Part shown: positions 52,174 to 58,497 of the stretch, piece by piece
How the letters are laid out: every line of letters starts with the position of its first letter
Position numbering within the stretch: the stretch's first letter is position 1
DNA from: a virus
Taxonomy: Duplodnaviria > Caudoviricetes
Direction: 5' to 3' (one strand)
IMG/VR virus record: IMGVR_UViG_3300032318_000568
Location: 1 to 59,633 of that record
Length of the DNA stretch: 59,633 bases
Translations under genes and position numbers: made by a program
The notes under the pieces: model-generated
Databases searched by the model: none
What the model was told of the DNA's origin: nothing
Seen by the model: the letters and a program-made list of their open reading frames with translations, nothing else

Positions 52174-52250
52174 GGTCTCATAGTTCAACTGGATAGAGCA
52201 TCCGCCTTCTAAGCGGGTTGTTGCAGGTTCGAATCCTGCTGAGACCGCCA
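52174..52250 (+). tRNA. tRNA-Arg(TCT)
   Basis: Cloverleaf, loop CTTCTAA, GTTCGAATC, CCA. Confidence 0.95.
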
Positions 52251-52333
52251 GTCCCCTTGGCGTAATAGGTAGCCGCGACGGGCTTAAAACTCGTTTCTTC
52301 GGAGTGCCAGTTCGAGTCTGGCAGGGGACACCA
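52251..52333 (+). tRNA. tRNA-Leu(TAA)
   Basis: Loop CTTAAAA, variable arm, CCA; abuts previous tRNA with no spacer. Confidence 0.92.
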
Positions 52334-52339
52334 AGTTTC

Positions 52340-52415
52340 GGAGGTGTAGCCAAGTGGTTAAGGCCCGCCGCTCATAACGGTGTTACCGCAGGTTCGAATC
52401 CTGCCGCCTCTACCA
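52340..52415 (+). tRNA. tRNA with CAT anticodon (Met or Ile2)
   Basis: Loop CTCATAA, GTTCGAATC, CCA. Confidence 0.9.
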
Positions 52416-52977: not shown

Positions 52978-53307
52978 ATGTCCGATTGGGGAAGTGAAGT
53001 TGAGAAAGAACGTAAGCGGAGAATATCCATTTCTCTTTATGCTTATGCTTATGAATATGAAAACGATAGTCTTGTTGATGATGCGACCTTTGATGAGTTA
53101 TCACGACAGATTAATCCGAATATGAAAACTGGACACGATGTATTAGATAAGTTCTTTGCAGAAGAGTTCGAACCCGACACAGGTATGTGGATACGAAAGC
53201 ATCCTGACTTACACGGTGTAAAGTTTCTATATGAAGCATACAGAACAGGGCAGTGGTTGAAATATACATTGAAAAAAATATCTAAACCACTTGACAATTC
53301 CCGATGA
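52978..53307 (+). CDS. Stand-alone protein resembling the N-terminal helical domain of NAD-dependent DNA ligase
   Basis: YAYAYEYENDSLVDDATFDELS resembles the YY..D.P.I.DAEYD.L pattern. Confidence 0.5.
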   Translation: MSDWGSEVEKERKRRISISLYAYAYEYENDSLVDDATFDELSRQINPNMKTGHDVLDKFFAEEFEPDTGMWIRKHPDLHGVKFLYEAYRTGQWLKYTLKKISKPLDNSR

Positions 53308-53321
53308 ATGTGTTATAAATA
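53291..53321 (+). promoter_or_regulatory. Overlapping sigma70 and T4-late promoter for leader/tRNA transcript
   Basis: TTGACA-N17-TATAAA(TA): the -10 box is also an exact TATAAATA. Confidence 0.85.
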
Positions 53322-53344
53322 GAATACAATAAAGAGGAAAACAA

Positions 53345-53437
53345 ATGACGACTTCGTGCCTTTATAATATTAGTGAGCCTAAAACACAACGTCACCCATC
53401 ATGGGCGGGCGATGTGTGGGGTTTTGTGACGATGTAA
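53345..53437 (+). CDS. Putative attenuator leader peptide MTTSCLYNISEPKTQRHPSWAGDVWGFVTM
   Basis: SD GAGG; 30 codons covering all 20 amino acids; 3' end overlaps antiterminator arm. Confidence 0.8.
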   Translation: MTTSCLYNISEPKTQRHPSWAGDVWGFVTM

Positions 53438-53469
53438 CACGAAGTTACATTTTAAGTTTACAAAACCTC
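53418..53469 (+). promoter_or_regulatory. Antiterminator hairpin
   Basis: GGGGTTTTGTGA (53418-53429) pairs with TTACAAAACCTC (53458-53469), enclosing GATGTAAC/GTTACATT. Confidence 0.75.
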
Positions 53470-53496
53470 GAAGCGAAAGTTTCGGGGTTTCTTTTT
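53463..53496 (+). terminator. Intrinsic terminator (attenuator) before tRNA array
   Basis: AAACCTCGAAGC-GAAA-GTTTCGGGGTTT then CTTTTT. Confidence 0.88.
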
Positions 53497-53524
53497 GGCT
53501 GATTGACATTGTTGGTTCCTTATT

Positions 53525-53601
<77 letters not shown>

Positions 53602-53604
53602 AGT

Positions 53605-53703
53605 TAAGATAAGACGGTAGTGATATGCGAAATCACAAGAACATTCCGGTAATCGCATGCCGGCATTAAGTATCTCACATAAATCTGAGAGCGTCTTATC
53701 TTA
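53605..53703 (+). ncRNA. Unassigned structured RNA, four-way junction with kissing loops
   Basis: 12-bp closing stem; three hairpins; loops ATGCGA and TCGCAT are complementary. Confidence 0.65.
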
Positions 53704-53710
53704 TTAGTTC

Positions 53711-53785
53711 GGGCCTTTGATGATAGTGGTAGCATGTCGCCCTTGCACGGCGAAAGCCAGAGTTCGATTCTCTGAAGGTCCACCA
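53711..53785 (+). tRNA. tRNA-Ala(TGC)
   Basis: G3:U70 pair, loop CTTGCAC, CCA. Confidence 0.93.
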
Positions 53786-53792
53786 AGTGTGA

Positions 53793-53875
53793 TTGTAGGT
53801 GACTCGTTGTGGAACCTTCAAAGAATTTTTGAGTTGATGGGTTGTAGGTGACCTGAGTGCGCTAGGGAACCTTCA
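53793..53875 (+). repeat. Tandem bipartite motif TTGTAGGTGAC...GGAACCTTCA, two copies
   Basis: 53793-53803 / 53811-53820 and 53842-53852 / 53866-53875. Confidence 0.75.
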
Positions 53876-53885
53876 CTAATTCAAT

Positions 53886-53970
53886 GTGAATGTGACCCGA
53901 GTGGCAAAGGGTAGGGGCTGTAAACCCCTCGTCTATGACTTCGTAGGTTCGAGTCCTACCGTTCACACCA
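53886..53970 (+). tRNA. tRNA-Tyr(GTA)
   Basis: Loop CTGTAAA, variable arm, CCA. Confidence 0.93.
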
Positions 53971-53977
53971 TTTTTAT

Positions 53978-54051
53978 TGTCCTATAGCTCAATGGGAGAG
54001 CAATCGCCTGATAAGCGGTAGACCTTGGATCGTAACCAAGTAGGACAACCA
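53978..54051 (+). tRNA. tRNA-Ile(GAT)
   Basis: Loop CTGATAA, CCA; atypical T-loop ATCGTAA. Confidence 0.85.
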
Positions 54052-54070
54052 GAAAAAATACTCTTTCGAT

Positions 54071-54078
54071 TATAAATA
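54071..54078 (+). promoter_or_regulatory. T4-type late promoter
   Basis: TATAAATA before HNH gene. Confidence 0.75.
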
Positions 54079-54108
54079 GGTGATAACCGATAATCTAAGG
54101 AGTAAAGA

Positions 54109-54438
54109 ATGCCTAATTATGAAAGAATAAAAGAATGGCGCAAAAACACAAAAATCAAACTCGTTGAAGGATTTGGTTCAAAGTGTGCTTGTTGTGGTAT
54201 AGAAGATGATGCTATCATCTATGATTTTCATCATCTAGAAGGAAAAGATTTTGGAATAGCATCTAAAATAACAAAATGGGAAAAATTGGTAGCCGAAGCA
54301 AAAAAATGCGTGTTACTATGTTCTCATTGTCACAGAAAAGTTCATTTCCGCAATTTGGAAATTACAAATCCAGTACCATTCAATGAAGATTTAATTCAAC
54401 ACCAAAAAAATAACAGGCACGGTTTTATTTCAAAATAA
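54109..54438 (+). CDS. Free-standing HNH endonuclease
   Basis: CACCG...YDFHHL...KCVLLCSHCHRKVH. Confidence 0.85.
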   Translation: MPNYERIKEWRKNTKIKLVEGFGSKCACCGIEDDAIIYDFHHLEGKDFGIASKITKWEKLVAEAKKCVLLCSHCHRKVHFRNLEITNPVPFNEDLIQHQKNNRHGFISK

Positions 54439-54453
54439 TGCCAACCATTTTAT

Positions 54454-54528
54454 TGGGGAATCGTCTAACAGGTAGGACATCTGACTTTGACTCAGCGAAC
54501 GGTGGTTCGAATCCATCTTCCCCAGCCA
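54454..54528 (+). tRNA. tRNA-Gln(TTG)
   Basis: U1:A72, loop CTTTGAC, GCCA end. Confidence 0.93.
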
Positions 54529-54532
54529 ATAT

Positions 54533-54608
54533 GGACCCATAGCTCAATAGGTAGAGCAAGCGGCTTTTAACCGAGAGGTTACAGGTTCAAATCCTGTTGG
54601 GTCTACCA
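54533..54608 (+). tRNA. tRNA-Lys(TTT)
   Basis: Loop CTTTTAA, CCA; anticodon stem has two mismatches. Confidence 0.88.
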
Positions 54609-54625
54609 ATTTATGGAGAAGCGAA

Positions 54626-55075
54626 ATGAATGATAGTTTTAAAGAAGTCCTTGATGCACTAAGAGAAGCATATGCAGAAGCAGATAAAGAAATGAAACAG
54701 TTAGCAGATGAATGTCCTAATGATGTAAAGATTGCTGTTACTGCATGGGCTATCAAACATATTGTCGACCATGCACAAGAAGGTGGTTCTTTTCGCACAT
54801 TGATTTATGACCGTTTTGGTTTTGGGCCAGAAGCATATGTACCACTTTATTCTGCTGGCGGTATGACTATCACAAATGAATTTGATATTGAACAAATGGA
54901 TGAAGTTAAGCGTATCGTAAAAGAAAATAAAATTGAAGCATTGAAAAAAGTTCTTTCTATGTGTGATGAACCCGAATGTTTCAATCAAGTTTCTTGTGGT
55001 TGGCCCACAGAAGATGGTGGTTATCGTAATACATGCAGCCATCATTATCATGGAAGATTAGTTAAGGACCGTTAG
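54626..55075 (+). CDS. Hypothetical protein
   Basis: SD GGAG; GGSFRTLIYDRFGFGPEAY, C-terminal Cys/His cluster. Confidence 0.7.
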   Translation: MNDSFKEVLDALREAYAEADKEMKQLADECPNDVKIAVTAWAIKHIVDHAQEGGSFRTLIYDRFGFGPEAYVPLYSAGGMTITNEFDIEQMDEVKRIVKENKIEALKKVLSMCDEPECFNQVSCGWPTEDGGYRNTCSHHYHGRLVKDR

Positions 55076-55141
55076 CTCAGTTGGTAGAGCAGGAGACTCT
55101 TAATCTCTTTGTCGGGGGTTCGAATCCCTCAGACGGTACCA
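55066..55141 (+). tRNA. tRNA-Lys(CTT) with aberrant acceptor stem
   Basis: Canonical D, anticodon (CTCTTAA) and T arms; acceptor pairs only 5 bp after a 2-nt bulge. Confidence 0.65.
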
Positions 55142-55156
55142 AATAAATAGAAAACT

Positions 55157-55230
55157 ATCAGTGTGGTGTAACGGTAGCACAAAGGTCTCCAAAACCTTTT
55201 GTCTGGGTTCGAATCCTAGCACTGATGCCA
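55157..55230 (+). tRNA. tRNA-Trp(CCA)
   Basis: Loop CTCCAAA, GCCA end. Confidence 0.93.
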
Positions 55231-55302
55231 TGAAATGAAGATATTTGTAAAGTTGAAATAAAAAGACTTGACAAATATGCGAATAAGTAGTAATATATAA
55301 AC

Positions 55303-55383
55303 ATGATGAGAAAGCGTCCTTCGGTATCATTCGCTCACTTTTTATACCCTAGGCTAATAGAGCATTGCTCCGCTTCTCATCAT
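55303..55383 (+). ncRNA. Unassigned structured RNA
   Basis: ATGATGAGAA(A)GCG / CGCTTCTCATCAT closing stem just after TTGACA-N17-TAATAT (55268-55296). Confidence 0.5.
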
Positions 55384-55393
55384 ACGAAATTAT

Positions 55394-55468
55394 TCCGTGG
55401 TGGCGCAGTGGTAGCGCAGTTGACTGTTAATCAATTGGTCGCTGGTTCGAATCCAGCCCACGGAGCCA
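55394..55468 (+). tRNA. tRNA-Asn(GTT)
   Basis: Loop CTGTTAA, GCCA end. Confidence 0.95.
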
Positions 55469-55536
55469 ATATATGATTCTCACGCCTCTCGTAGAAGCGC
55501 AACAGAGAATCGTAACATCGTTGAAAATTTGTAAAT

Positions 55537-55544
55537 TATAAATA
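55537..55544 (+). promoter_or_regulatory. T4-type late promoter
   Basis: TATAAATA before second HNH gene. Confidence 0.75.
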
Positions 55545-55575
55545 GAAGTATATGTAGTTTACAAAAGAGTTTATA

Positions 55576-56271
55576 ATGGATTATAAAAAGCACTATGAAT
55601 TATTGGTCATAAGAGCCAAATTTAGAAATATATCTGAGTATGCTGAGTCGCATCATATCATACCAAGATGTTTAGGTGGTGACGATAGTTCTGATAATTT
55701 AGTTGATTTAACACCTGAAGAACATTATTTGGCCCATCAGTTATTGGTCAAAATGTATCCAGACAATAAAAAACTGATACATGCGGCAATGATGATGATT
55801 CCTAAAAGACCGTCAAATAAACTATATGGATGGTTGAGAAGAAAGTTTTCGGCCATGCGAAGTGAGGATCAAAAAAATATAAATCTTGGTTCTAGATGGA
55901 TACATAATAAAGACTTAAAGAAGAATAAGAAAATAAAAAAAATCGAATCTTTACCTGAAGGTTGGAAAGAAGGTCGAATACAAAATTTTGAATTGTATAA
56001 TGTGAAATGTAAAACTTGCGGTTCAACTTTTGAAAGAAAAAAATTAGAGATATACTGTTCTGATATATGTAAAAAGAATGATAAGAATGGAAACATAAAA
56101 AAGATTGATGAAAATCTTGAAGATATGATTATATATTATCAGAATATCAAATCTATAGACAAGACACTGAAACATTTTGGTTTAGTAGGAGTTAGAGCTG
56201 GTAATGGTTACTTTTCCAGAATACTGAAAGAGAGAAACATTCCTGTTCGAAAAAGAAGAAATAGCATTTAG
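55576..56271 (+). CDS. Free-standing HNH homing endonuclease (T4 Mob-like)
   Basis: ESHHIIPRCLGGDDSSDNLVDLTPEEHYLAHQLL; PEGWKEGR; CxxC...CxxxC. Confidence 0.9.
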   Translation: MDYKKHYELLVIRAKFRNISEYAESHHIIPRCLGGDDSSDNLVDLTPEEHYLAHQLLVKMYPDNKKLIHAAMMMIPKRPSNKLYGWLRRKFSAMRSEDQKNINLGSRWIHNKDLKKNKKIKKIESLPEGWKEGRIQNFELYNVKCKTCGSTFERKKLEIYCSDICKKNDKNGNIKKIDENLEDMIIYYQNIKSIDKTLKHFGLVGVRAGNGYFSRILKERNIPVRKRRNSI

Positions 56272-56353
56272 CTGGATTGGCACAGTGGCGACTGCACCGC
56301 TTTTGTAAGGCGGGATACAAACATCGGGAGTTCGAGTCTCTCATCCAGCACCA
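56271..56353 (+). tRNA. tRNA-Thr(TGT) with long variable region
   Basis: G1-C72/C2-G71, loop TTTGTAA, 12-nt variable arm, CCA. Confidence 0.8.
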
Positions 56354-56359
56354 GTTTAT

Positions 56360-56443
56360 GGAGGTATGCGAGCAAGGTGCTCAAAGGCTCTTGAAAAGCC
56401 TGCCACCGCAAGGTTGATGGTTCGATTCCTTGTACCTCCGCCA
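56360..56443 (+). tRNA. tRNA-Ser(TGA)
   Basis: Loop CTTGAAA, variable arm, GCCA; weak T stem. Confidence 0.8.
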
Positions 56444-56447
56444 ATTT

Positions 56448-56522
56448 GCCCAAGTAGTTCATTGATAGAACGAATGTCTCATAAGCATTAGGTAGATGGT
56501 TTGATTCCATCCTTGGGCACCA
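56448..56522 (+). tRNA. tRNA with CAT anticodon (Met)
   Basis: Loop CTCATAA, CCA. Confidence 0.85.
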
Positions 56523-56529
56523 TACAGAT

Positions 56530-56537
56530 TATAAATA
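56530..56537 (+). promoter_or_regulatory. T4-type late promoter
   Basis: TATAAATA 5 nt before the ATG at 56543. Confidence 0.65.
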
Positions 56538-56542
56538 CATGC

Positions 56543-57292
56543 ATGAAGCAATATAAAACAGTATTCATATCAGACGTTCATTTAGGAACAAAAATGTCTC
56601 AGGCCAATTTATTGCTTGAGTTTCTAAAATCATTTGAATGTGAAAAACTGTATCTTGTTGGTGATATCATAGACGGCTGGTCACTCGGTCGTTCTTTTTA
56701 TTGGCCTCAAGACCATAATGATGTAATACAAAAGTTTCTACGCCGCGCCCGTAAAAATACTCGTGTCATTTATATTCCAGGCAATCACGATGAATTTTTA
56801 CGAGCATTCGGTGAACACCAATTTGGGAATGTCGAATTACTTAGAAACGACACCCACATTGGTGTTGACGGCAAAAAATATATCGTCATGCATGGGGACG
56901 AGTTTGATGCCGTCATTAATAATATAAAATGGCTCAGCCATCTTGGTGCATGGGCATATGATGTGTCAATAAGTCTCAACATAATCGTATCAAAGATAAG
57001 GTCTTGGTTTGGACTACCTTACTGGTCAGTCAGTGCATGGTTAAAGTATAAAGTCAAAGAAGCAGTTAACTTTATAGGCAACTATGAACAAAATCTATCA
57101 GCTTATGCTAAATCTAAAGAGGCGAATGGAATTATTTGTGGTCATATACATCATGCCAATATACGCAAGATTGATGATGTGGTTTATATGAATTGTGGTG
57201 ATTGGGTTGAATCTTGCACCGCACTAGTAGAACATCTAGACGGTACATGGGAAATAATAGTATGGAAAAACCAACAAAACTCTGCATCGTAA
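56543..57292 (+). CDS. PlcP-like phospholipase C / LpxH-family metallophosphoesterase
   Basis: FISDVHLG, LVGDIIDGW, PGNHDE, HGDEFD, CGHIHH, YMNCGDWVESCTALVE. Confidence 0.85.
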   Translation: MKQYKTVFISDVHLGTKMSQANLLLEFLKSFECEKLYLVGDIIDGWSLGRSFYWPQDHNDVIQKFLRRARKNTRVIYIPGNHDEFLRAFGEHQFGNVELLRNDTHIGVDGKKYIVMHGDEFDAVINNIKWLSHLGAWAYDVSISLNIIVSKIRSWFGLPYWSVSAWLKYKVKEAVNFIGNYEQNLSAYAKSKEANGIICGHIHHANIRKIDDVVYMNCGDWVESCTALVEHLDGTWEIIVWKNQQNSAS

Positions 57293-58278
57293 CAGATGCA
57301 TGGTTTCCTCAAATTAATGGTGTAGTAACAACTCTTGATAATATTGTCAAGCAAGCCAAAATCGATGGTTGGGAAGTTCTTGTTATACACCCATTGCTCT
57401 TCAAAACAATATCAGCACCAAAATATCCAGAAATCTTTCTTGCAATACCTTTTGGTATGATTAAGATGATTCGTGATTTTAATCCAGACCATCTTCATGT
57501 TGCGACAGAAGGACCACTCGGTCTGTTAGCAAGAATAGCATTCAGAAAAGAAGTTTATACAACTGCATATCATACTCAGTGGGATGATATTGCAAAAGAT
57601 ATATTACATATTCCAAAATGGATAACAAGAGCATATGTTCGTTGGTTTCACGAGCATGGTCAAGTTATGGTTACAACAAAATCTATTGCAGATTATCTAA
57701 TCAAGATTGGTGTTAAAGCAGAGATAAAATATCTGTCTCGTGGTGTAAATGTGGAAAAGATAATCGACCATAATACACATATCAAAAGAAGTGACAAACC
57801 TGTTCTGCTATCTGTTGGTCGAGTGTCGAAAGAAAAAAATCTTGAAGCATTCTGTGAGTTAGACCATACAAAGTTTGATTTGGTTCTTGTTGGTGATGGG
57901 CCAATACTAGAAGATTTGAAAAAGAAATATCCGCATGTAAGATTTACAGGTGCATTACATGGGCAGAAGTTAGCAAAAGAGTATCATAAAGCAGATTGTT
58001 TTGTCTTTACAAGCAGAAAAGATACATATGGTCTTGTCATCATAGAAGCGTTATGCAACGGAACTCCTGTAGCCGCTTATCCTGTTCAAGGTCCAATAGA
58101 TATCATTGATGATAATTTTGGTGCTGTGGATGACAACATATATAAAGCTATACAGAAAGCACTCTTGACAGACCGTGAAAAGTGCGCTAGTATAGCCAAA
58201 GATAAATTCAACTGGCGTTCGGTTTGGAAACAATTCAAGTCTAATCTTGTTGATTATGCGGAGGTAGCTCAGTGGTAG
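57262..58278 (+). CDS. GT4 glycosyltransferase, Agt-like glycolipid synthase
   Basis: IVTDAWFPQINGVVTTL, HVATEGPLG, AYHT, VGRVSKEKNL, DTYGLVIIEALCNGTPVAAYPVQGP. Confidence 0.85.
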   Translation: MEKPTKLCIVTDAWFPQINGVVTTLDNIVKQAKIDGWEVLVIHPLLFKTISAPKYPEIFLAIPFGMIKMIRDFNPDHLHVATEGPLGLLARIAFRKEVYTTAYHTQWDDIAKDILHIPKWITRAYVRWFHEHGQVMVTTKSIADYLIKIGVKAEIKYLSRGVNVEKIIDHNTHIKRSDKPVLLSVGRVSKEKNLEAFCELDHTKFDLVLVGDGPILEDLKKKYPHVRFTGALHGQKLAKEYHKADCFVFTSRKDTYGLVIIEALCNGTPVAAYPVQGPIDIIDDNFGAVDDNIYKAIQKALLTDREKCASIAKDKFNWRSVWKQFKSNLVDYAEVAQW

Positions 58279-58332
58279 AGTCCTTGCTTGCCAAGCAAGT
58301 TGTCGTGGGTTCGAATCCCATCTTCCGCTCCA
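58258..58332 (+). tRNA. tRNA-Gly(GCC)
   Basis: Loop TTGCCAA, TCCA end. Confidence 0.95.
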
Positions 58333-58339
58333 GTAATAC

Positions 58340-58415
58340 GGGCGATTAGCACAGCGGTAGTTGCTCCTGCTTTACACGCAGGATGTCGGGAGTTCGAATC
58401 TCTCATCGCCTACCA
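58340..58415 (+). tRNA. tRNA-Val(TAC)
   Basis: Loop TTTACAC, CCA. Confidence 0.93.
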
Positions 58416-58420
58416 ATATT

Positions 58421-58497
58421 GCGCTGGTGATGGAATTGGTATACATATTAGTCTTAGAAACTAAGTTTTGGGAGTTCGAGTCTCCCCTAGCGCACCA
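58421..58497 (+). tRNA. tRNA-Leu(TAG) with short variable loop
   Basis: Loop CTTAGAA, 5-nt variable region, CCA. Confidence 0.88.

Follow-up and report, generated by a model that had tools for sequence, protein, structure and literature searches.

A putative ribosome-operated attenuator in front of tRNA genes in uncultured T4-like phages

What does a phage gain by placing a short, putatively translated leader and a strong terminator in front of its transfer RNA (tRNA) genes? The question is raised by IMG/VR virus record IMGVR_UViG_3300032318_000568, a phage contig of 59,633 bases that was analyzed at its full length (the window; the phage is referred to as W), and it touches on two open questions, namely why phages carry large tRNA sets and how the expression of these sets is timed. 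The leader consists of a promoter, a short open reading frame (ORF) and an intrinsic terminator, and it stands directly ahead of tRNA-Pro. We consider it fairly probable from the sequences compared here that the element is a ribosome-operated, trp-type transcription attenuator that heads a tRNA gene block and is conserved in an uncultured clade of T4-like phages. Comparison of structures across the relatives lends this reading good support. Because relatives of W keep the switch through matching base changes, the leader probably couples transcription of the tRNA genes to the performance of the ribosome.

Competing helices in the leader and its relatives

The leader in the window is made up of the following features.

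53291..53321, + strand: sigma70-type leader promoter, with -35 TTGACA (53291-96), a 17-nucleotide spacer and -10 TATAAA (53314-19)
53334..53337, + strand: Shine-Dalgarno core GAGG, 7 nucleotides before the ATG
53345..53437, + strand: leader ORF MTTSCLYNISEPKTQRHPSWAGDVWGFVTM, 30 codons plus TAA; the homologs, in 17 distinct sequences, are 25-36 codons long
53375..53424, + strand: hairpin P1 (53384-53417, apex CCCA-UCA-UGGG) with outer pairs 53375-80/53419-24, present in the minimum free energy (MFE) structure
53417..53429, + strand: region 2, the 5' strand of the antiterminator, within ORF codons 25-29 and 6-18 nucleotides before the stop codon
53431..53451, + strand: apical hairpin of the antiterminator, whose 5' arm (53431-38) contains the stop codon (53435-37), from per-sequence folds
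53458..53470, + strand: region 3, the 3' strand of the antiterminator, of which 53463-53470 also begins the 5' arm of the terminator
53463..53496, + strand: intrinsic terminator, with a stem of 12 pairs (53463-74/53479-90), the loop GAAA (53475-78) and a T tract (53491-96)

Regions 2 and 3 can form 13 base pairs, G-U pairs included, and the resulting antiterminator encloses the stop-codon hairpin. Columns 58-66 of alignment A4 are shared by the antiterminator and terminator helices, and the two structures are hence mutually exclusive. In a 12-sequence alignment, 6 of the 13 antiterminator pairs have changed on both sides and 81% of cells are paired; the covariation score was reached in 0 of 500 shuffles, and slid controls had only 0-2 pairs changed on both sides. 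The terminator gave a similar picture: both sides have changed in 6 of 13 pairs, the share of paired cells is 95.5%, and again none of 500 shuffles reached the score. The antiterminator helix is no by-product of the terminator, since the part of it that lies outside the terminator stem differs among W, L125, L128 and the L131/L207 groups (L-numbers denote the loci of relatives) and yet is complementary in each of them.

Folding of individual sequences is consistent with a switch between these helices. For transcripts that end before region 4, which is the 3' arm of the terminator, the antiterminator is the MFE structure in 11 of 11 sequences and also in the divergent relative L143, and its predicted probability in such cut transcripts is 0.79-1.0 in all 17 distinct sequences. 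At full length, the MFE structure combines the terminator, the stop-codon hairpin and a 1:2 pairing around P1 in 10 of the 11 sequences and likewise in L143; the exception is L224, in which the antiterminator is the MFE structure even at full length. The 1:2 pairing consists of the outer pairs of P1, which occupy the start of region 2 as a 'protector'. P1 was recovered by RNAalifold, and its apex is conserved in four of the six lineages described below. The leader RNA of W as a whole is unusually structured (z = -4.72). The stop codon lies in the 5' arm of the apical hairpin in 16 of 16 sequences and in L143, a result that is taken from per-sequence folds and not from pair counts because the MAFFT alignments are structurally inconsistent for this hairpin. 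When bases of the terminator arm that pair upstream were counted, the comparison with shuffles was uninformative, the count in shuffles being equal to or higher than the native one in 0.3-36% of cases; only the energies stand out, with z values from -2.05 to -3.45. The GAAA-capped terminator, the competing pairing of 53458-53469 and the protector hairpin had been pointed out in an initial annotation of this DNA, and all of them are present in the sequence or in the MFE structure.

The phage W is T4-like, and identity to counterparts in cyanomyophages and a Methylophilales phage is about 52% for its DNA polymerase and 62-65% for its gp41-type helicase, with no closer cultured relative among the genomes compared. 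The contig is estimated to be 33% complete. Relatives carrying the leader were found through the neighborhood of the helicase gene, two sequence patterns and a covariance model. The result was 17 distinct leader sequences in six lineages (W, L125, L128, the L131 group, the L207 group and L143), every one of them beside or within a tRNA array, and the phages that carry them are uncultured and T4-like. All of the leaders keep an ORF of 25-36 codons, a stop codon in the 5' arm of the hairpin, the antiterminator helix and a distance of 23-27 nucleotides from the stop codon to the terminator arm. The initial annotation had proposed a search for short ORFs and covarying hairpins ahead of tRNA arrays in related phages, and the outcome was positive.

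The helicase gene lies 3.8 kb upstream of the leader in W and led to homologs at 80 loci, 8 of which are 71-78% identical; the three of these 8 loci that reach a tRNA array (L125, L128 and L131) all hold a homologous promoter, short ORF and terminator within the array. A pattern based on the hairpin apex matched 28 viral loci, of which 14 are true copies, and 32 metagenome loci, of which 10 are, and this made 16 distinct full-length sequences; the other 14 viral loci are unrelated GC-rich coding DNA, and the other 22 metagenome loci are also unrelated. A covariance model of the 3' half of the leader added the sixth and much more divergent lineage, L143, which has a 36-codon ORF and a terminator 12 nucleotides before tRNA-Pro, followed by tRNA-Asn, tRNA-Arg and tRNA-His. 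Two of the three loci that match the L143 motif are chance matches. Weak matches to covariance model R1 in L043, L034, L085, L008, L009, L199 and L151 were not accepted, and the match in L043 proved on inspection to be the ordinary terminator of a protein gene. The gene order in the main group is tRNA-Arg (tct), tRNA-Leu (taa) and tRNA-Met, often with tRNA-Ile (tat) and tRNA-Leu (caa), then the leader, and then the main array from tRNA-Asn onward. Just upstream of the leader, several relatives have a long tRNA of 91-92 nucleotides that is called as Ile, with the anticodon tat at position 31 (L131 14555-14646; L128 10452-10542; L212 4973-5064), and L212 also has, at 1470-1551, a tRNA with a two-base anticodon call.

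Several other searches were negative within their scope. When the phage collection was searched at the DNA level for near and for distant matches to the leader region of W, only tRNA matches were returned, and a DNA search with the L212 leader gave a single weak and short match (24% of the query, E value 2e-3), in a Prevotella phage. The exact terminator sequence of W is absent from the viral contigs searched. Homologs of the upstream gene at 52978-53307 have tRNA genes nearby in 0 of 11 loci, and the five closest homologs of the 149-residue protein encoded at 54626-55075 have them in 0 of 5. No Rfam family, T-box included, matched the leaders of W and L131 at E values up to 1. A loose, generic structural scan for a short ORF with competing pairing revealed no new lineage; it returned 39 other terminators out of 1,394 (2.8%), and these 39 matches look spurious, the one that was inspected (L156) falling inside a coding frame.

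Predicted translation of the leader and the genes downstream

If the switch is operated by ribosomes, the ORF must be transcribed and translated. The spacer of the leader promoter has a TG extension at 53311-12, and the -10 element doubles as the T4-type late motif TATAAATA at 53314-53321; the combined sigma70 and late pattern occurs once in the window versus 0.02 times expected. The late motif alone occurs eight times in the window, always on the + strand (4.1 occurrences are expected on both strands together), which fits the use of T4-type late promoters in the clade to which W belongs. Six of the eight copies are 26-39 nucleotides ahead of the start of a listed ORF, and the copy in the leader is 31 nucleotides before the ATG. 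The motif and the bases just 3' of it are kept in the homologs. A Shine-Dalgarno core is found at positions -18 to -5 of 30 of the 57 long ORFs in the window versus 8% of random positions. The translation signals in W are its Shine-Dalgarno core and a late-promoter distance typical of the genes in the window. The dual promoter and the Shine-Dalgarno sequence GAGG had been noted in the initial annotation, and both are borne out in the sequence.

None of the 17 sequences interrupts the ORF, which starts past the late-promoter motif and has its stop codon in the hairpin arm. When the ORFs of six representatives were shuffled, the stop-free share was 0.245, 0.374, 0.088, 0.326, 0.478 and 0.071, the product of which is about 9e-5. 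Length differences within the ORF are 3 nucleotides in both the L131 and L207 groups, and differences of 1 nucleotide occur in loops past the stop codon, in the hairpin and the terminator. A nascent-peptide arrest motif (PSWAG) was considered and is disfavored, as it is missing in L128 and L143 and the DNA at this place is the apex of P1.

The position of the stop codon relative to the helices is a further constant feature of the leaders. Region 2 ends up to 10 nucleotides before the stop codon and touches it in L143, and with the 23-27 nucleotides between the stop codon and the terminator arm, a ribosome at the end of the ORF would be predicted to cover the antiterminator strand and not the terminator. 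In the mechanism that we propose, the sigma70 and late promoter would start an RNA carrying the 25-36 codon ORF. Were a ribosome to reach the stop codon while the polymerase is still at the terminator, region 2 would be covered and the tip hairpin melted; the terminator would then form, and transcription would stop about 30 nucleotides before tRNA-Pro. With a ribosome that is late, stalled or absent, the antiterminator would form first and the polymerase would continue into the tRNA genes.

Ribosome masks were modeled by equilibrium folding with a 30-nucleotide footprint. In W, placing the A site at codons 8-17 (other than codon 12) gave antiterminator probabilities of 0.5-0.8, and terminator probabilities of 0.8-0.9 were obtained from codon 18 to the stop codon or with no ribosome at all. 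L143 behaves like W for codons 19-29, and L131 does so only for codons 7-9. With no ribosome, the terminator is favored at equilibrium in every lineage (probability 0.72-0.98). The masked folds fit the logic of the initial annotation, in which a ribosome that finishes the leader masks the antiterminator and one that is late or stalled leaves it free.

As to what the ribosome would be reporting, the leader lacks a codon run, and no two lineages have a tandem codon in common. Since there is no such run and any slow codon would delay the ribosome, the likeliest signal is overall decoding speed and not the supply of one amino acid. We suggest, tentatively, that the leader may be a decoding-speed gauge that raises transcription of the phage tRNAs on demand, especially from the late promoter, under any slowing of the ribosome. 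Decay of host tRNAs during infection, starvation and tRNA-cleaving defense nucleases are possible causes of such slowing, and recent work links phage tRNAs to escape from tRNA-cleaving defenses (PMC11464382, PMC11555353). A trp-type attenuator that has no codon specificity would in this way join translation and tRNA supply in a feedback loop.

The genes within reach of the leader are tRNA genes, of which ARAGORN found 20 in W. Fifteen of these are behind the leader at 53525-58497, in agreement with the initial annotation, and three are upstream of it at 52174-52415. The first block after the terminator is as follows.

53525..54051, + strand: tRNA-Pro (tgg), tRNA-Ala (tgc), tRNA-Tyr (gta) and tRNA-Ile (gat), called by ARAGORN, with no promoter-like site from the terminator to tRNA-Pro

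Because the 29-nucleotide gap between the terminator and tRNA-Pro contains no promoter-like site, this first block would depend on read-through from the leader or from earlier promoters. Promoter-like sites do occur farther into the array, at 55268 (ahead of tRNA-Asn) and 58165 (ahead of tRNA-Gly), as do late motifs at 54071, 55537 and 56530. The array also contains HNH and homing-endonuclease genes (54109-54438 and 55576-56271), each with TATAAATA 38-39 nucleotides before its start. The 109-nucleotide spacer between tRNA-Pro and tRNA-Ala (53602-53710) has a long inverted repeat at its ends and looks like a structured RNA, and a direct repeat of a two-part motif is found at 53786-53885, between tRNA-Ala and tRNA-Tyr.

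Difficulties and alternative readings

A number of observations weigh against a ribosome-operated attenuator. The bare layout of an attenuator can arise by chance, as the 39 other matches among 1,394 terminators indicate, and in L123, a 174-kb relative that carries 25 tRNA genes, covariance model R1 detected no leader homolog. The 1:2 pairing is weak and rich in G-U pairs, and the cut transcript prefers the antiterminator over it. Under every ribosome mask, the terminator probability is at least 0.8 in three of the six lineages (L125, L128 and L207), and a switch in these lineages would have to be kinetic, the antiterminator being the first to form except when a ribosome occupies region 2. Evidence for translation is uneven as well. 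A clear Shine-Dalgarno sequence was seen by eye in W and L125 only, and the ATG of L128 is just 4 nucleotides past the late-promoter motif. The ratios of variable sites over the three codon positions are 8:6:8 and 2:1:3 for the L131 and L207 groups, respectively, and because there is no third-position excess, the peptide itself is under no visible selection. A peptide that varies evenly fits a leader in which translation matters but the product does not, and a non-coding RNA would look alike.

The last difficulty concerns the targets. Nine of ten relatives have a second promoter-like site about 45 nucleotides past the terminator, which was located by script in two of the nine (L125 and L227) and by eye in the rest; it consists of TTGACT, TTGAAA or TTGCAA and, after about 17 nucleotides, a TATATT-like box. 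L128 is without such a site, and its nearest is about 216 nucleotides downstream. If these sites are promoters, read-through in those relatives would only add to an independent promoter. The initial annotation had the leader controlling all fifteen tRNAs, which is overstated given the promoter-like sites inside the array of W and the site past the terminator in nine of ten relatives. The leader would therefore gate one input to the array, perhaps that from the late promoter, and not the array as a whole.

The region past the terminator has further features of its own. In the nine relatives with a second promoter-like site, the terminator is followed by a small conserved hairpin and an A-rich stretch and then by the site, which is at +43 in L125 and L227 and at about +50 in L131, L212, L216 and L226; W and L128 are without this segment. 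A second conserved feature is found downstream of every leader.

W 53498..53513 (+ strand), L131 15075-15099, L125 from 16993 and L207 from 3136: single-copy conserved element of about 25 nucleotides

With up to 2 mismatches allowed, each leader-bearing phage has a single copy of this element, in every case downstream of the leader, and there is no other copy in the loci compared. It is directly past the terminator in W and L128; in the others it follows the second promoter-like site, whether or not a small ORF is present there. Between the element and tRNA-Asn there are about 200 conserved and apparently structured nucleotides (about 15100-15321 in L131 and about 17020-17244 in L125), which include a T-arm-like piece of a tRNA and have no ARAGORN or Rfam call.

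One alternative is that the locus is a small late gene or a stable small RNA, whose transcript of about 165 nucleotides acts alone as a peptide, as an RNA or as both, and in which the pairing serves folding, stability or control of translation. In its favor are a strong terminator that is predicted to form without a ribosome in every lineage, an RNA that is highly structured throughout, a late promoter at the distance of an ordinary gene and, in most relatives, a separate promoter-like site right past the terminator. There is also precedent for attenuator-derived RNAs with functions of their own, in rnTrpL and peTrpL (PMC7968998). We nevertheless regard this alternative as unlikely, since it leaves unexplained why a helix that excludes the terminator is maintained by compensatory changes and why the stop codon is placed where a ribosome covers that helix and not the terminator. 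Moreover, no selection at the amino-acid level is seen on the peptide, and the terminators of W and L143 are 29 and 12 nucleotides from tRNA-Pro with no promoter-like site between.

It could also be that a protein or RNA-binding factor, or a ligand, controls the choice between terminator and antiterminator and that the ORF is incidental. The absence of third-position bias, the lineages that lack a Shine-Dalgarno sequence, the conservation of the P1 apex in four of six lineages and the single-copy conserved element downstream would all suit such control. An incidental ORF would not be expected to stay open in 17 of 17 sequences when only 7-48% of shuffles are stop-free, to conserve its start and stop positions or to change in length by threes, and no Rfam family, T-box included, was matched at E values up to 1. 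This alternative is improbable.

The amino-acid content of the leader bears on a third alternative, that of a leader selected to include every amino acid, so that the array would be induced whenever any tRNA runs short, for instance through anticodon nucleases. The ORF of W has 20 distinct residues, complete by residue 27, and 26 distinct codons in 30, with codon 25 the first repeat; the initial annotation had described it in the same way, as a 30-codon ORF with all 20 amino acids and its first 24 codons all different. The exact probability of all 20 residues in 30 equal draws is 0.0013. This stretch is the sole one in the window (4 overlapping windows among 35,236 stop-free windows of 30 residues), it is the one case among 269 window ORFs of 25-35 codons, and there is no such case in 20,000 windows from the window's own proteins. 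The stretch is unusual for this single ORF, but as a find in a whole window it is unremarkable, because 70% of dinucleotide-shuffled windows (n = 60) contain at least one 30-residue stretch with all 20; a 27-residue stretch occurs in 20% of them.

The relatives put the diversity of the W leader in perspective. The numbers of distinct residues per length are 20/30 in W, 18/25 in L125, 18/30 in L128, 15-18 in 26-28 in the L131 group, 14-16 in 27 in the L207 group and 16/36 in L143. When compared with windows of real proteins, four lineages are high (P < 5e-5, 0.0016, 0.020 and 0.028) and two are ordinary (0.60 and 0.51). Against stop-free shuffles of their own nucleotides, the P values are 0.0017 for W, 0.033 for L125, 0.061 for L128, 0.147 for L131, 0.89 for L207 and 0.70 for L143. 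Without W, which was chosen for the trait, the remaining shuffle P values combined by hand with Fisher's method give about 0.07, which is not significant. The balanced base composition of a structured RNA lifts the expected diversity to 15-16 residues and explains much of the diversity of the leaders. By hand count with strict wobble, and without a gene-wide background, the 15 downstream tRNAs of W, whose combined range is 26 of 61 codons, can read 19 of the 29 codons of its leader, and the 24 downstream tRNAs of L207, with a range of 40 of 61, can read 22 of the 26 codons of the L207 leader.

A leader designed around all amino acids is thus very improbable, for its attractions (the full set in W, 18 distinct residues in the leaders of both L125 and L128, the lack of a conserved codon run and the match of leader codons to downstream tRNAs) are set against the ordinary leaders of L207 and L143, the non-significant result without W, the effect of base composition and the frequency of such stretches in shuffled windows. 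The initial annotation had taken the all-20 content for a feature of the design; the homologs have 14-18 distinct residues, the composition-matched null singles out W only, and the all-20 composition is peculiar to W and most likely incidental.

Relation to known leaders and significance

Leader-peptide attenuators are well known from enterobacterial amino-acid operons, as in trpL, hisL, pheL, leuL and thrL and in the multivalent ilvGMEDA leader. The leader of W has in common with the trp/his type a short promoter-proximal ORF, an intrinsic terminator and an antiterminator of which one strand is also used by the terminator. A weaker 1:2 pairing is predicted upstream, and a ribosome at the stop codon would block the antiterminator. 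It matches these leaders in every structural feature that is testable and fails in the regulatory codon run. It further differs from them in that its targets are phage tRNA genes, its promoter is also a phage late promoter, its stop codon is inside the antiterminator hairpin and its nascent RNA, without a ribosome, favors the antiterminator and not the 1:2 pairing. The pheL leader is treated in PMC3082878.

In their mode of action, the phage leaders may have closer counterparts elsewhere. Ribosome-stalling leaders that sense translation inhibitors are found ahead of resistance genes, a class known from Term-seq that includes tet(M) of Tn916, bmrCD and vmlR. Like the W leader, they have a short ORF without amino-acid specificity; whether their terminator or antiterminator forms depends on a general slowdown of the ribosome, as it would in W. 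By this analogy, the leader of W would work more like the inhibitor-sensing leaders than like amino-acid-specific attenuators, with the difference that the inhibitor-sensing leaders control bacterial resistance or rescue genes and the leader of W would control the supply of phage tRNAs. PMC12421871 is a related paper.

For tRNA genes, the nearest published case is the trn operon of Anabaena sp. PCC 7120, a long tRNA array that, according to PMC8421152 and PMC10272220, is silent until translation is impaired. Transcription of this accessory array goes up under impaired translation, and transcription of the array in W would do likewise. Control of the Anabaena operon is exerted at the promoter, through direct repeats bound by the repressor TrcR, and not by attenuation (PMC8421152); the main text of that paper has 0 occurrences of attenuat-, leader or terminator. 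No publication describing control of tRNA genes by a leader peptide in phages came up in a literature search. T-box riboswitches (RF00230) bind uncharged tRNA directly and need no ORF. As in T-boxes, the choice between terminator and antiterminator in the phage leader would be tied to tRNA status, and the leader is without an Rfam match at E values up to 1.

The leader element is small and portable, at about 200 nucleotides, and is suited to reporter constructs. If the attenuator reading is correct, the leader would represent the first classic leader-peptide control of tRNA genes rather than of amino-acid or synthetase genes, and it would be a case of attenuation that works without specificity for one amino acid. 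The logic of gauging decoding speed may be shared by several unrelated groups of phages.

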